Shown here piece after piece: positions 9,439 to 34,010 of a DNA stretch of 34,899 nucleotides. Where the stretch lies: contig JBFGZE010000020.1 of NCBI GenBank assembly GCA_041586955.1, positions 1 to 34,899 of the forward strand. Reading direction: 5' to 3'. The notes under the pieces were generated by a model. The model did no database searches. It was not told where the DNA came from and saw only the letters and a list, made by a program, of their open reading frames with translations. This DNA comes from Bacteriovoracaceae bacterium (lineage in GTDB: Bacteria; Bdellovibrionota; Bacteriovoracia; Bacteriovoracales; Bacteriovoracaceae). The position numbers and the translations under genes are program-made. Within the stretch, counting starts at the first letter, position 1. Every line of letters begins with the position of its first letter.

Positions 9439-9675
9439 TTAAAAATCTGAAGGGCGAACCGTCTTGCGGCCATTGGCGATACAACGCTCACGTGCCTTTT
9501 CGACTAATTCATGAACAGCTTCATTAAACGCCACGAGAGCATCACCTGAAACATTTAAAGTATTCTTACCTGAACCCTTTAACGCATCTTTTGTTTTAGA
9601 GCCGACCAAAAGCATTTCTACTGATTTTTTTGTAGATTTTTTAGCTATTTTTTTTGTCGCTTTTTTCTTTGCCAT
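9439..9675 (-). CDS. Bacterial histone-fold protein (Bd0055-like singlet) with Lys-rich N-terminal tail
   Basis: 78 aa from ATG 9675 (AAGGAG SD). The core MLLVGSKTK...NVSGDA...LVEKARERCIANGRKTVRPSDF has the histone-fold RKTVxxxD loop2/alpha3 signature and resembles Bdellovibrio Bd0055 (LVVTSKVK...GRKTVMARD, from recall). Confidence 0.88.
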   Translation of the reverse strand: MAKKKATKKIAKKSTKKSVEMLLVGSKTKDALKGSGKNTLNVSGDALVAFNEAVHELVEKARERCIANGRKTVRPSDF

Positions 9676-10061
9676 CTTAAAACTCCTTTTTATGTGATGA
9701 GGTCGCAAAATTCTAGGAACTTCCTGGCCGTCTGTAAAGAGCCTTGGCGCCAAAACTCGTCAGCGTATTTTCAGTACAAATATGATTAGGCCTTTAATCA
9801 GGCGCTACAATATGAATGATATGGAAAAATCTTATTTCGAATTGGTCATTAAAGGGGAAAAGTAGCTCATAGGAATTTTGATAGAAAATCAATAAAAGAC
9901 CAGTTATCTCAATTAAAAAACTTTTACTTTGATTTCCCCCGGGCCATCCGATTTACTTTTTTACTTTTGTAAAGATTGCAAGACTAATCCCGGGGAGTAC
10001 AAAGGCCAAGTTGAACTGGTGTTTCAATACAAATCAGGTCTTTCTACAAAAATACTCTCCA

Positions 10062-29185: not shown

Positions 29186-29593
29186 TTACATATCAGAATC
29201 TAAATCTGATTCCTCTGAATTATTCATAAAAGAACTAAGAGCGCGTGAAGTTCCGTCCCGAGAAGGAATCGATGTATCTTCTTTCCCTTTATCATCTAAA
29301 CGGTGAGAATAGCGAACAGTAACATCTTCTTTTAAAACCTGAGACGGCTTGAAGGTTAAGACGCGACGAGCAGATATTTCCATAGCGTCACCTGTTTGAG
29401 GGTTTCTCCCCATTCGGGTGGCCTTGTCTCTGATAGAAAAATTTCCGAAACCAGAAATCTTTACTTTTTCGCCTCTAGCTAAAGTGTCTTTAATGACTTT
29501 GAAGACCATATCAACGAGGTCGGCTGCTTCTTTTTTAGAAAAACCAGCTTCCTTGTAGACTCTTTCAACAATATCGGCCTTTGTTAAACTCAT
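29186..29593 (-). CDS. ihfA: Integration host factor alpha subunit with C-terminal extension
   Basis: MSLTKADIVE...VKISGFGNF...GRNPQTG...ISARRVLTFKPSQVLK; GGAGG SD. Confidence 0.93.
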   Translation of the reverse strand: MSLTKADIVERVYKEAGFSKKEAADLVDMVFKVIKDTLARGEKVKISGFGNFSIRDKATRMGRNPQTGDAMEISARRVLTFKPSQVLKEDVTVRYSHRLDDKGKEDTSIPSRDGTSRALSSFMNNSEESDLDSDM

Positions 29594-29689: not shown

Positions 29690-31126
29690 CTAAGATTTTA
29701 TGCGTCTTTTCTTAGTTTTTTTGCCAGGTTTTTGAATCTTTTTAAATAATTGATCTGTTTCCCTGTCTTTTTGCTTGAGCCAATCAGTCATATACTCTTT
29801 AACTTCCATCAACTCTTCAATCAATTTCTTAGACACTAACTTTTGAGAGCCAGCAACCTTTTTATATTCTTTTAATTTAATCGAATCTTCTTTGACCATC
29901 AGTTTACGTTTCGCTACTTCCTCTTTAGTCATGCGATAAATAGGCATATCAGCGAGATAATCACTGAAGAAATATTTTTTCTTAAGCAAGTACTCTACAT
30001 ACGACTTACGATTCTTTTGCTTAGTAGCGGCTTCATATTCTTTGTTTTTAATGAATTTGATAATTTCATTATTTTGGCGAATTTTAGTCTCAAATTCCTT
30101 GCAGAGGAGCTCATAGCGGCGAAGGACAACCTGTAATCGCTGCTCAGTAAAAATCTCAATAATTTGCTCTGGCCGATCAAAAATCCTCACACCCCGCTCT
30201 GAAATAAGGGTGTAATTAGGAGATAATGAAGCACTCGTCCCCATAACCTTTTCAACTTCAGCAAGAGTTGGGGTTTGGCCACGCTTAAAAATTAATTCAA
30301 TCCGGACATTATTATTAACTGTCGAGTCAATATAATCCTTTAGAAAATCAGCTTCTATATGCTTATTAAGAAAACGATAGGTCTTGGTTCCATCATAGCC
30401 TTTGGGCAATTCAATAATATAGATCTTGCCGTCTTTTTCCTCAAACTTCATCGGAAAAAGATAACGGCCACGATCCGCTTCAATCTTGGCCGTATAATTA
30501 TGAACATAAGGTTTTAACTTTTTGGCCTTTTTTGTTTTAACGTATTCGATCATTGAATCACAGATGTCTTTATGATGAAAACTTGGAATCATAGAAGAAA
30601 AACCTGTTCCAATTCCTTCCGCACCATTGAGTAACATCAACGGGAGCTTTGGCAATAAGGCCGCAGGCTCAACAACTGTTTCATCATAATTGGGGATCAT
30701 CTCAACTTGGTTCATATCATCAAAAAGAATAAAATTAGTCATCTTCGATAATTTACATTCAATGTATCGACCAGCTGCAGGAGATGTTTCCATCCGTTCG
30801 CCAAAATACCCTTTCTTTTCGATAAGTGGGTAATTATTAGCAAAGGTATAATCCTGGGCCATATTAACAATGGCAGTCTCAATAGAAGCAGGACCGTGGG
30901 GGTGTAAGGTTAAAACTAAACCTGTTGCTGCGGAAACTTTAACTAACCCTTTACTTTGATTTTTATAGAGGGTGAAAAGAATTCGCCTTTGCCCGGGTTT
31001 CAGGCCATCTTGCAAATACGGAATCGCCCGATCCATAAGAGTATAAATTTGATAAATACGGTACTCCTCTCGCACAATTTGATCGAGAGGGACAGTCTCA
31101 AGAGAATGAAGATAAGTCTCTTGCAT
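29690..31126 (-). CDS. Atypical type IIA topoisomerase A subunit (breakage-reunion domain only, no CTD pinwheel)
   Basis: DRAIPYLQDGLKPGQRRIL, HPHG, MAQ, catalytic AAGRY, LLNGAEGIGTG; only 478 aa. Confidence 0.92.
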   Translation of the reverse strand: MQETYLHSLETVPLDQIVREEYRIYQIYTLMDRAIPYLQDGLKPGQRRILFTLYKNQSKGLVKVSAATGLVLTLHPHGPASIETAIVNMAQDYTFANNYPLIEKKGYFGERMETSPAAGRYIECKLSKMTNFILFDDMNQVEMIPNYDETVVEPAALLPKLPLMLLNGAEGIGTGFSSMIPSFHHKDICDSMIEYVKTKKAKKLKPYVHNYTAKIEADRGRYLFPMKFEEKDGKIYIIELPKGYDGTKTYRFLNKHIEADFLKDYIDSTVNNNVRIELIFKRGQTPTLAEVEKVMGTSASLSPNYTLISERGVRIFDRPEQIIEIFTEQRLQVVLRRYELLCKEFETKIRQNNEIIKFIKNKEYEAATKQKNRKSYVEYLLKKKYFFSDYLADMPIYRMTKEEVAKRKLMVKEDSIKLKEYKKVAGSQKLVSKKLIEELMEVKEYMTDWLKQKDRETDQLFKKIQKPGKKTKKRRIKS

Positions 31127-31148: not shown

Positions 31149-33296
31149 TTATTTTTTCTTAGTCGTTTTCTTTTTCTTTACTGTTTTTTTAGCTACTTTT
31201 TTCTTAGTGGCCTTTTTCGCTGTCTTTTTGGCCACCTTTTTCGTTACTTTCTTAGTCGCTTTTTTAGCTACTTTTTTAGCTACTTTTTTAGCCACTTTTT
31301 TAGTCACTTTTCGACTAACAGAATCTCCACTAGCAGAGAAGACCATATCTTCACTCGTATCCATTAAAAGATCTTTACGAGGAGAAGAATCTTTTCCAAA
31401 ACAGACTCCCAGCATCTCTTTGGCAGAAGTTAAGTCATCGATATGGATTTCAGTATACTTTTCCTTATCCAATACATATTTCCAGGCCTGCGGGGACATT
31501 TCTCCCAGCCCTTTATTGCGATGAATGGCCCTAATCTTTGGATTTTTCTTTTTTAATTCTTCTAATTGGTTCGGTGTTTCGACATAAATCGTATTTTTAT
31601 CTGTCACCACCTCAAAAAGAGGGGCCTTGGCCAATTCGATAACCCCATTTTCAAATAATTCCGGCCAAAAGGTAAAAAAGAAATTCGTTAAAAGAGTATT
31701 AATATGGCCACCATCCACATCAGAATCCGCGAGGAAAACAATTTTCGAATAGCGCATTTTTTCAATCACCGCTGGTTGGCCAATGGTTAATCCCACAGAG
31801 GCCATAATATCGGAGAATTCTTGATTATTGAGAATATCTTTAATTGTCGATTGAGCGACATTCATCGGCTTTCCTCGCAGGGCAATTCCCCCTTGAGTTA
31901 ATTTATTCCGCGCCGAACGCAGCCCCCCAATGGCCGAGTCCCCTTCACAAATAAAAAGCATACATTTGCTACGGTCTCTTCTTTCGTTAGCGTCTAATAA
32001 TTTTTCAACCCGTTGCTTTTTTTGCTTTCGTCCACGTTTAGAGGCATCTTTTAATTCTTGGAATTTATGCCGCGCTTTACCACGTTCCACCACTAATTCT
32101 AGATAGTCTTTATTTTTACGCATAAATTTATCGATAAATTTTGCCATAAATGATTCGAGACTTTTTTCGAGATGGGTATCACGCACTAATTTTCTTTTAG
32201 TTTGTGATTCAAACCGTGGGTTGGGCATGGTAATTCCCATAATAAAGGTCAAACCAGTCAGAACATCATTGTCAACAACAGTAATTTTCTCTTTTTTGGC
32301 AGTCCTTTCTAATTTCTCTTTAACCGCATTGATAAAAAGCCGTCGGATCCGGTCTTGATGAAAGCCACCGTCAAACGTGGGTGTGGAATTCACAAAACTA
32401 ATAAAGCGCTCACGCTCTTCAGACTTGCGGTCAATAACCAGGGAGGTGTGAACATCTATTTTCCCTTTAACTTTCTTGCCTTTTATATTTTTGCTTTCAA
32501 AAACATAGGAGTGCTCACCTAATAATTGTGCCCCTTCCTCGTTAATCTGAGTGGCCAATTCGTAAAGACCTTTTTTAAAGACAAACTTTTCCTTATTAAA
32601 AAAGAAAATGAGACCAGGATTATTATAGGCCAAATCGATGATTCTTTTACGAAGAAGATCAGGATCAATAACCGGATCTTTATAAACTTCTTTCGATAAC
32701 ACCACCTCAACTCGCACACCAGAATGACCGGTAAAGGTTTTGGGCCTAGTTTGCTTAACCTTCAATGCCCCATCGATAAAAGTAATGGTTTGCTCTTTTT
32801 TAGAATTATAGTGGCGGACACGAACTTTAAAACTATCTGCGGTCAAACAGGTGGCCGCTGCTCCAAGACCATTTTGGCCTAGAGTCCGGTGTAAGAAACC
32901 TTTTTCGTCCACTTCCTCATCTTTAAATTTAGAGCCTGTACGGAATTCACTATAGACCTGCTTCACCTTACTCAAGGGAAAACCGATACCATTGTCTTCA
33001 ACCGCCACAGTTCGCCCGTCATCTGATAAAGTGGTGTGAATTTCCGTGACGTGGCCACGATAATATTCATCAATACAATTATCGAGAATTTCCTCGATGG
33101 CCTTACTTTTCGCTTGGTGGAACTTCACCTGCTGAAAGGAAACGCCTTTATCAGTATAAAGATATGTGTCTAAATCTTCGATATCATTAGAACCAAAAAC
33201 CAAAGTGATGCGATTCCGGCAATGCCAGCGCTGATCCTTACTCTCAATAAGAGCATCTTTAGCTTTACCTTTCCTTTTTATCGATCCAACTGCCAT
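31149..33296 (-). CDS. Atypical type IIA topoisomerase B subunit (GHKL and TOPRIM) with Lys-rich tail
   Basis: EILDNCIDE, DNGIG, GQNGLGA, FESQTK, EGDSA, LRGK, DSDVDGGHI, KGLGEM. ATG 33296 with GGGAAG SD. Confidence 0.93.
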   Translation of the reverse strand: MAVGSIKRKGKAKDALIESKDQRWHCRNRITLVFGSNDIEDLDTYLYTDKGVSFQQVKFHQAKSKAIEEILDNCIDEYYRGHVTEIHTTLSDDGRTVAVEDNGIGFPLSKVKQVYSEFRTGSKFKDEEVDEKGFLHRTLGQNGLGAAATCLTADSFKVRVRHYNSKKEQTITFIDGALKVKQTRPKTFTGHSGVRVEVVLSKEVYKDPVIDPDLLRKRIIDLAYNNPGLIFFFNKEKFVFKKGLYELATQINEEGAQLLGEHSYVFESKNIKGKKVKGKIDVHTSLVIDRKSEERERFISFVNSTPTFDGGFHQDRIRRLFINAVKEKLERTAKKEKITVVDNDVLTGLTFIMGITMPNPRFESQTKRKLVRDTHLEKSLESFMAKFIDKFMRKNKDYLELVVERGKARHKFQELKDASKRGRKQKKQRVEKLLDANERRDRSKCMLFICEGDSAIGGLRSARNKLTQGGIALRGKPMNVAQSTIKDILNNQEFSDIMASVGLTIGQPAVIEKMRYSKIVFLADSDVDGGHINTLLTNFFFTFWPELFENGVIELAKAPLFEVVTDKNTIYVETPNQLEELKKKNPKIRAIHRNKGLGEMSPQAWKYVLDKEKYTEIHIDDLTSAKEMLGVCFGKDSSPRKDLLMDTSEDMVFSASGDSVSRKVTKKVAKKVAKKVAKKATKKVTKKVAKKTAKKATKKKVAKKTVKKKKTTKKK
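31152..31313 (-). repeat. Degenerate 12-bp tandem repeat encoding KK(V/A/T)(A/T) units
   Basis: Plus-strand units such as TTTTTTAGCTAC x2, TTTTTTAGCCAC and TTTTTTAGTCAC; encodes 54 aa containing 29 Lys. Confidence 0.9.
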
Positions 33297-33395: not shown

Positions 33396-34010
33396 ATGCA
33401 AAAAATACAATACTTTCTATTTATCAGTTTTTTCCCCTATTTACACCTCTCGGCAGGGGTTATTACCCCCTCCACCAAGGCCTTTGAGAGATTTGGTCCC
33501 GAGGCGAATCAGGCCATCTTGAGTGGTGAAATTTTTATTAATACACAAGTAAAAGACTTCGCTCAAAGCAAAGGACCTAAACAACAAACCCTTAATTTTC
33601 GCATTGGCGGCCTACATCCTCGCAATTGCCAGTCCGCGTTACGAAAGTTATCACAATACGAGAATTTCTCCAGATGGATTGGGTTTATTGATAAAAGTAC
33701 TTATGATGAAAAAAAGCAAAGGCCGACCTTCCATCTCAAAAGTAACCTCCTACCCTTTAATATGACCCTTGATTTTCATTTGCCCCGCATCCGGCAACCT
33801 GGTGTTTATGAGTTTCAATTTGACCGGGGGTTTTTATCAGGACTCAAGGGAAAAATCTATGTTCACTCTCATAAAAAGCGCTGCTTTTTTGAAAGTGAGG
33901 CCTATTGGCGTGGTCCCCACTCCAGTATCCCGAGCTCTGTTTTTGAATTCTTCTCTGATGCACTAGGTCGTCTCGCAATGGAAAACCTCTTCCGTATTTC
34001 ACGCTCTTAA
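33396..34010 (+). CDS. Exported hypothetical protein, possibly SRPBCC-like fold
   Basis: 204-aa ORF with a signal-peptide-like N-terminus. LSQYENFSRWIGFI, GFLSGLKG and a C-terminal IP helix loosely resemble SRPBCC; fold call is weak. Confidence 0.65.
   Translation: MQKIQYFLFISFFPYLHLSAGVITPSTKAFERFGPEANQAILSGEIFINTQVKDFAQSKGPKQQTLNFRIGGLHPRNCQSALRKLSQYENFSRWIGFIDKSTYDEKKQRPTFHLKSNLLPFNMTLDFHLPRIRQPGVYEFQFDRGFLSGLKGKIYVHSHKKRCFFESEAYWRGPHSSIPSSVFEFFSDALGRLAMENLFRISRS

Follow-up and report, generated by a model that had tools for sequence, protein, structure and literature searches.

A labile lysine-rich tail on the B subunit of a type IIA topoisomerase without the A-subunit C-terminal domain in a Bacteriovoracaceae genome

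We studied a stretch of 34,899 nucleotides from a Bacteriovoracaceae bacterium (assembly GCA_041586955.1, contig JBFGZE010000020.1, positions 1 to 34,899; hereafter the window), with a focus on the gene for the B subunit of a type IIA topoisomerase (31149..33296, minus strand), whose product ends in a lysine-rich tail of 54 amino acids (31152..31313, minus strand). By analogy with basic tails of other DNA proteins, we propose that this tail would serve as a non-specific polycationic nucleic-acid anchor, carried on the B C-terminus of an enzyme that has no C-terminal domain (CTD) on its A subunit, and we put the probability of this reading at roughly 0.6.

The tail was characterized from its translation, codon table, charge, spacing and DNA periodicity, and the translation bears out a preliminary description of this DNA, which had reported 54 residues with 29 lysines in KKxx units after an acidic and serine-rich linker. 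The core of the protein closes with a conserved ...RKDLLMD, followed directly by a linker of 15 residues rich in serine and acidic residues (31314..31358, minus strand; net charge -3) and then by the tail, which is composed of 29 Lys, 1 Arg, 8 Val, 8 Thr and 8 Ala, and has a net charge of +30. Lysine thus accounts for 54% of the residues, acidic and aromatic residues are absent, and KK pairs follow each other at a spacing of 4 residues in nine successive units. Against a lysine background of 7.7%, calculated from open reading frames (ORFs) of at least 200 amino acids, finding 29 lysines in 54 positions has a binomial P of 1.4e-18, and windows of 54 residues with at least 24 lysines occur in 10 of the 2302 ORFs of at least 200 amino acids in the genome. 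The codons are mixed, as the preliminary description had also noted: AAA 21 and AAG 8 for lysine, GCT 5, GCG 2 and GCC 2 for alanine, and GTA 5, GTG 3 and GTT 1 for valine. A period of 12 nucleotides nevertheless persists in the tail DNA (7.2 copies, 81% matches). The repeat probably arose by slippage, though not recently. On the opposite strand, an ORF of 105 amino acids with FLATFL repeats (31207-31524, plus strand) was rejected as a gene, being the mirror reading of the tail.

The protein that bears the tail is a B subunit of 715 amino acids plus stop codon, with GHKL ATPase, transducer and Toprim domains (PF02518, 33.2 bits, cut-off 26.4; PF00204, 77.2 bits, cut-off 27; PF01751, 39.7 bits, cut-off 23.1). 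The DNA_gyraseB_C profile PF00986 scored 25.4 bits, under its cut-off of 29.8, and precomputed matches to this profile exist for many of the homologs. Alignment with 22 orthologs set the start at MAVGS; a TTG start at 33410 was rejected, as the orthologs share the ATG start. In the alignment, the EGDSA and DSDVDG motifs are invariant across the 22 orthologs. The gene for the A subunit (29690..31126, minus strand) starts 22 nucleotides past the B stop codon and encodes 478 amino acids, namely a breakage-reunion domain that matches PF00521 with 284.7 bits along positions 1-431 of the 432 in the profile, and a short basic end. Its ...AAGRYIE... segment presumably corresponds to the catalytic-tyrosine motif, which it resembles. 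No match to the beta-pinwheel repeats (PF03989) was obtained in this subunit, the five PF03989 matches of the genome all lying in GyrA, on contig C80. The absence of an A-subunit CTD, already pointed out in the preliminary description, is thus confirmed, with PF00521 as the only profile matched in the 478 residues.

Homologs with names assign the window to Bacteriovoracaceae/Halobacteriovoraceae, which are predators related to Bdellovibrio. The genome (3.46 Mb in 194 contigs, 39% GC, 88% complete) holds two A-type subunits, GyrA and the one described here, and two B-type subunits, GyrB and the tailed one. As no canonical ParC or ParE was found in this 88% complete assembly, the enzyme stands where topoisomerase IV would; it should not, however, be classed as a canonical topoisomerase IV, even though no type IIA enzyme other than gyrase and this one was found in the genome. 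Orthologs of the B subunit, with 68-74% identity, are present in 22 of 24 other Bacteriovoracaceae genomes, while 16 sampled genomes from other families of the phylum yielded none, only matches at the level of GyrB (27-31% identity).

We then considered how far the composition of the tail extends to other proteins. A six-frame scan of the genome for at least four consecutive units of two to four lysines plus small residues retrieved the KKxx grammar in 12 ORFs, identified by Pfam. These comprise the topoisomerase B subunit; a histone with an N-terminal tail; topoisomerase I, which has a KKTA run at its N-terminus; a small SWIB/MDM2-domain protein with an N-terminal tail of about 140 residues (G000:C2:21922-22617); the alpha part of a class I fumarate hydratase (fumarase alpha), with an N-terminal extension (G000:C19:32418-33671); a PNP_UDP_1 phosphorylase with an N-terminal tail (G000:C4:12769-13911); IF2; an HC2-like protein on contig C142, whose Pfam HC2 match is weak and below the cut-off; three proteins without family match; and one fragment at a contig edge. 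The peptide KKATKK occurs 25 times, in 6 ORFs of the genome, and most hexapeptides of the topoisomerase B tail are shared by 2-12 ORFs. A looser scan for lysine patches raised the number to 26 ORFs, the extra ones being mostly short basic patches, and the strict set of 12 was retained; GyrA, GyrB and a second histone on contig C79 were flagged by no lysine-tail scan. Recent copying of tails between genes was rejected: at the DNA level, the topoisomerase tail is at best only 69-80% identical to other tails of the genome, and its likeness to them therefore reflects selection on composition. The likeness to histone H1 is also one of composition only, as comparison of the B subunit with linker-histone and HC2 profiles gave no match at E <= 0.01. 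The occurrence of the same module on proteins that deal with DNA, namely topoisomerase I, the SWIB protein and the histone, plus the HC2-like protein, supports the anchor.

Among relatives, a lysine-rich tail of the B subunit is found in 13 of 23 species-level orthologs, extending 36-111 residues beyond the core motif and containing 11-40 Lys or Arg. These tails cannot be aligned with each other, but they are lysine-rich and in frame in every case, and no frameshifted or stop-broken tail was found among the 23 orthologs. In a wider sample, made of the best 120 database homologs of the B subunit and biased to close relatives, 113 of the 119 that could be parsed have a tail of at least 30 residues with at least 10 Lys or Arg. 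Topoisomerase I behaves in a more uniform way: at least 11 lysines precede the Toprim domain in 16 of 17 Bacteriovoracaceae orthologs, and in 0 of 8 orthologs from other families. The set of tagged proteins, as a whole, varies among related genomes.

As a separate observation, in 21 of the 119 close homologs the lysine tail closes with one of two short conserved peptides, ...GLLGHLEY or ...LADMIDYLD; the B subunit of the window has no such ending. Judged by its sequence, this terminal peptide looks like a docking motif on a flexible tether.

Based on these results, we propose the following way of action for the anchor. Assembled as A2B2, the enzyme would carry two tails of +30 each. From functional ParE-ParC and GyrB-GyrA fusion constructs among solved structures, we infer that the C-terminus of B adjoins, at the DNA gate, the N-terminal end of A, and from there the tails could make electrostatic contacts either with DNA on the flanks of the gate segment or with another duplex. 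Such contacts may lead to longer residence of the enzyme on the nucleoid and, probably, to higher processivity. The tail itself is no device peculiar to this enzyme: it belongs to a low-complexity module, (KK[AVT][AVT])n, that is spread through the lineage and grafted on protein ends in Bacteriovoracaceae; this module grows, shrinks and is lost fast, probably by slippage of the 12-nucleotide repeat, with selection holding its frame and composition.

Several results weigh against this proposal. In 10 of the 23 orthologs the B subunit has no tail and stops 1-31 residues past the core motif. On a tree of the B core, the presence or absence of the tail requires 8 changes, at least 3 of which are forced by well-supported branches; clustering of the trait does not exceed that of shuffled labels (in 360 of 500 shuffles the number was as low), and well-supported sister genomes differ from each other (G010 with tail and G022 without, 100/98; G007 with tail and G017 without, 100/99). 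Absence from 10 of 23 orthologs, differences between sisters and lack of clustering together indicate that the tail is dispensable, and it could be nearly neutral. Moreover, proteins with no known DNA role are tagged in the same way, namely fumarase alpha, the PNP_UDP_1 phosphorylase and IF2. For the first of these, an N-terminal lysine-repeat extension of approximately 60-145 residues, surprising on such an enzyme for a tail of the histone H1 kind, is present in 12 of 16 family orthologs, and for the PNP-family phosphorylase a tail is present in 5 of the 10 orthologs that could be parsed by pattern, out of 23 loci. DNA may thus not be the only or the main ligand of the module, RNA and polyphosphate being candidates. 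In addition, disorder of the tail is assumed from its composition, and the anchor role is, for this protein and its relatives, read from their sequences.

The dispensability of the tail also raises the possibility of neutral low-complexity growth, in which slippage of an A-rich 12-nucleotide repeat would be tolerated at the ends of proteins without having any selected function in the enzyme. We regard this as unlikely, although several observations fit it well: the tail state flips between sister genomes and is unclustered on the tree, tail length ranges from 0 to 111 residues, the 12-nucleotide period is still visible with 81% matches, and tails also occur on metabolic enzymes. Furthermore, variation in the number of lysine-rich repeats is also seen in chlamydial Hc2, whose size changes with it (PMC2848022). 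However, all the tails are in frame and keep to a narrow composition of Lys, Ala, Val and Thr, with none broken among the 23 orthologs; close homologs are nearly all tailed (the 113 of 119 given above); of the topoisomerase I orthologs in the family, 16 of 17 have kept their tail; and codons have diverged while the peptide grammar has been kept.

The tags on metabolic enzymes can also be explained in a different manner, as hitch-hiking: the module would park chosen proteins on the nucleoid, on polyphosphate or on a charge-driven condensate. The purposes might be, for example, the sharing of proteins among progeny or their packing into the compact attack-phase cell. Tails of 60-140 residues conserved on fumarase alpha (12 of 16) and found also on the PNP-family enzyme agree with this explanation. 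Two further proteins of the genome do so too, each combining a coiled-coil part with a lysine tail as PhaF and AlgP do, and H1-like tails of PhaF and AlgP tie polyhydroxyalkanoate (PHA) and polyphosphate granules to the nucleoid (PMC11894788). For a topoisomerase, however, direct DNA binding is simpler, and the set of tagged proteins varies between related genomes, so that we assign hitch-hiking, together with its example purposes, a low probability. It should be noted that parking of this kind and anchoring to DNA are not mutually exclusive. The two proteins, encoded at G000:C23:14562-15107 and C35:18591-19217, have a coiled-coil-like N-terminal part and a C-terminal lysine-repeat tail, no Pfam match, and the same architecture as PhaF and AlgP.

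In the preliminary description, the tail had been suggested to replace the missing CTD of the A subunit. In this scenario, it would do the job of the GyrA/ParC beta-pinwheel, that is, capturing or steering the transported segment, and would be needed for normal activity. In its favour, the A subunit does lack a CTD, the tail would exit near the DNA gate, if the solved fusion constructs are a guide, and the basic stretches of the mycobacterial TopA CTD have been proposed to act in strand passage (PMC5714199). The comparison of orthologs, however, speaks against it. The 10 tail-less B subunits are paired with A subunits that are equally short (472-478 amino acids, no longer than the others), and the Leptospiraceae have an enzyme with neither CTD nor lysine tail, judging from 45 B subunits seen. 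These two facts indicate that the enzyme does not need the tail as a CTD. Moreover, among basic elements it is the short Lys/Arg-rich end of the A subunit, and not the tail of B, that stays constant in the family: the best 120 homologs of the A subunit are all 467-494 amino acids long and end in a basic stretch, the final 30 residues containing a median of 14 Lys or Arg. Enzymes of the phage T4 type and those of eukaryotes also function without a beta-pinwheel. Replacement of the CTD by the tail was therefore not borne out, and we consider it quite improbable.

A second proposal of the preliminary description concerned the histone encoded approximately 21.5 kb from the topoisomerase tail (9439..9675, minus strand), a protein of 78 amino acids in which an 18-residue N-terminal KKxx tail (9622-9675) precedes a histone fold. 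The start of this gene was set by orthologs that begin with MAKK and share the ATG start, a TTG start at 9753 being rejected. Over residues 19-78 the protein matches bacterial histones of solved structure (9qt0, 1.3e-6; 8cmp, 6.4e-4; 8fvx, 7.3e-4), and the RKT motif is present as GRKTV, with a weak match to PF00808; it is a putative member of the alpha3-truncated 'bacterial dimer' type (Bd0055/HBb-like). The likeness that the preliminary description had seen at the start of the histone is real, since both proteins follow the same grammar and share KKATKK, of which the topoisomerase tail has two copies and that of the histone has one. From this, a tail code had been proposed, in which the shared grammar would recruit the topoisomerase specifically to histone-coated chromatin. 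The joint presence of the two tails within one window of 35 kb, in an organism that belongs to a histone-bearing group, is in line with such a code. Nevertheless, the grammar is present in 12 ORFs and KKATKK in 6, and not only on proteins related to DNA: the check for tails on unrelated, non-DNA-binding proteins found them on fumarase alpha, the PNP-family phosphorylase and IF2. The genome also encodes a second histone paralog (G000:C79:9582-9758), which is untailed, and among relatives the N-terminal tails of histones range from none to 36 residues, with tailed and untailed paralogs coexisting in one genome. With tailed histones defined by at least 8 Lys or Arg, no co-occurrence was detected: they were found in 5 of the 13 genomes whose topoisomerase is tailed and in 2 of the 10 others (Fisher p = 0.41), or in 5 of 10 and 2 of 4 when only genomes where this histone type was found are counted (p = 1.0), and as these tests treat related genomes as independent, even the weak trend is overstated. 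Moreover, like-charged tails have no obvious way of recognizing each other, and Schwab et al. describe the positively charged tails common on some bacterial histones as lacking a conserved sequence (PMC11390915). Altogether, the spread of the grammar, its lability and the lack of co-occurrence contradict a specific code between histone and topoisomerase, to which we give next to no credence. As an additional observation, several relatives encode longer histone-fold proteins (146-161 amino acids) with a Cys-rich N-terminal part, which are probably the ZZ-type histones of Schwab et al.

Regarding the affinities of the enzyme, similarity places it closer to phage T4-type and eukaryotic topoisomerase II than to ParC or GyrA, which it seems to resemble less. 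The best solved matches of the A subunit were a eukaryotic topoisomerase 2 (6ca8, 3.3e-37), the T4 medium subunit (8ylu, 4.6e-32) and ParC (2inr, 4.8e-32); for the B subunit, ParE/GyrB (1e-49) was a slightly better match than the phage large subunit (8e-43). After the family members, the best 150 cluster representatives are mostly of about 430-460 amino acids or fused proteins of more than 1000. An A-subunit tree was built from 145 sequences, that is, 135 of these 150 representatives plus 10 added ones; among the representatives in the tree, 75 are shorter than 600 amino acids and 44 have at least 1000 (fused). The nearest representative from outside the family is a Leptospira protein of 462 amino acids (34% identity, E 3e-67), an A subunit conserved across Leptospiraceae. 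A scan with it gave 50 loci, each of them in Leptospira, Leptospiraceae or other Spirochaetota; there the A gene precedes the B gene, and none of the 45 B subunits seen has a lysine tail. The tree was a quick FastTree run, rooted on GyrA, the first 500 residues of which were added by hand, and it put the Bacteriovoracaceae clade outside all others with a weak support of 0.78; the Leptospira enzyme, nearest in the similarity ranking, is not grouped with Bacteriovoracaceae in it. In the literature searched, we found no published description of the CTD-less enzyme of Bacteriovoracaceae, and two papers on Bdellovibrio and Bacteriovorax chromatin (PMC10627809, PMC11789641), searched apart from their supplements, mention neither the enzyme nor these tails.

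A wider interpretation can be built on these affinities, and we put it forward as a speculation with very little likelihood. Histones have been reported as major chromatin proteins both in Bacteriovoracaceae (relatives of Bdellovibrio) and in Leptospiraceae, and, by similarity, the enzyme of each lineage would be the closest cellular relative of the other. In both lineages, a topoisomerase II of the phage/eukaryote type without CTD might then have taken the place of canonical topoisomerase IV, if histone-coated DNA favours a crossover-sensing enzyme that has no wrapping CTD. Were this true, the polycationic tails that the enzyme, TopA, the histone and further proteins carry in Bacteriovoracaceae would together constitute one charge-based layer of chromatin association, with the B tail as a by-product.

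Downstream of the A subunit, the window contains a gene for an IHF/HU-like protein (29186..29593, minus strand; PF00216) with a conserved C-terminal extension (...RALSSFM...) and an acidic end. It lies directly downstream in the window as well as in 9 of 12 sampled relatives, and the relatives that lack it at this position (G001, G006 and G018) all have tail-less B subunits. We treat this gene as context, as it has no demonstrated part in the function of the tail. Two side observations were made elsewhere. At the starts of contigs C161 and C162, two similar ORFs follow another grammar, rich in Lys and Asn (KNKKK, PKKPKK), in which 24 residues contain as many as 17 Lys; they are not related to the KKxA tails. 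Moreover, a gene of the relative G001 that resembles topoisomerase I (L099) closes, where its contig ends, with a SWIB-like sequence, which recalls the chlamydial TopA-SWIB fusion.

Overall, what appeared to be a private code between histone and topoisomerase is corrected here to a generic and labile polycation tag, of a kind known from TopA, HupB and Ku. Of the lysine-tail precedent drawn upon in the preliminary description, the H1-like composition, the tagging of DNA proteins and the TopA and HupB literature hold, while the private code and the replacement of the CTD do not. In addition, lysine repeats are not confined to GC-rich genomes, contrary to an earlier suggestion, and the conservation of the tag on metabolic enzymes such as fumarase alpha brings up the question of its ligand, be it DNA, RNA or polyphosphate. 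Lastly, tailed and tail-less orthologs exist in nature, and they offer a ready comparison for the effect of a polycationic tail on a type II topoisomerase.

Among known systems, the closest is TopA of actinobacteria, for which the following points are taken from one report (PMC5714199). TopA of Streptomyces coelicolor also ends in a repetitive low-complexity stretch of Lys with Ala and Thr, and taking the lysine repeats out of the Streptomyces enzyme destabilised its complex with DNA and lowered its processivity. Across 22 Streptomyces proteomes, lysine repeats were found in 554 proteins, and 175 of these proteins are annotated as DNA-binding, so that DNA-binding ones are over-represented there but not alone; as here, the repeats occur on many proteins of a proteome, and, again as here, they are absent from homologs in other lineages. 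The differences are also clear: our tail sits at the C-terminal end of the B subunit in a type IIA enzyme and not on a type IA one, it is denser in lysine (KKxx, 54% Lys, against a K1-2(A/T/N)3-5 pattern in TopA), and it belongs to a genome of 39% GC, whereas such repeats had been suggested for GC-rich genomes (PMC5714199). Moreover, unlike TopA, it lacks a terminal acidic pair, and it is a tail deduced from a gene sequence. The PAKK/KAAK domain of mycobacterial HupB (PMC5676037) and the PAKKA repeats of Ku (PMC3553676) are likewise H1-like basic tails on DNA proteins, and HupB needs its C-terminal domain for nucleoid binding in vivo (PMC5676037). Their units contain Pro, whereas ours contain Val, Thr and Ala, and both the host protein and the phylum are different. 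Long DNA-binding, lysine-rich repeats that tie cargo to the nucleoid, with a repeat number that varies between strains, are also known from the H1-like C-terminal domains of AlgP and PhaF and from Hc2 (PMC11894788, PMC2848022). Those, however, are dedicated nucleoid or granule proteins, whereas the tail described here is an appendix on an enzyme. As for the enzyme, phage T4-type (8ylu/8yo3) and eukaryotic topoisomerase II are likewise encoded by two genes or fused, without a beta-pinwheel CTD, but the present enzyme is only 28-35% identical to them and is encoded by a chromosomal gene across a bacterial family. Eukaryotic topoisomerase II has a basic disordered region after its A part, whereas the tail studied here follows the B part. 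To our knowledge, this is the first lysine-repeat tail described on the B C-terminus of a CTD-less type IIA enzyme, and it is found in an AT-rich genome.

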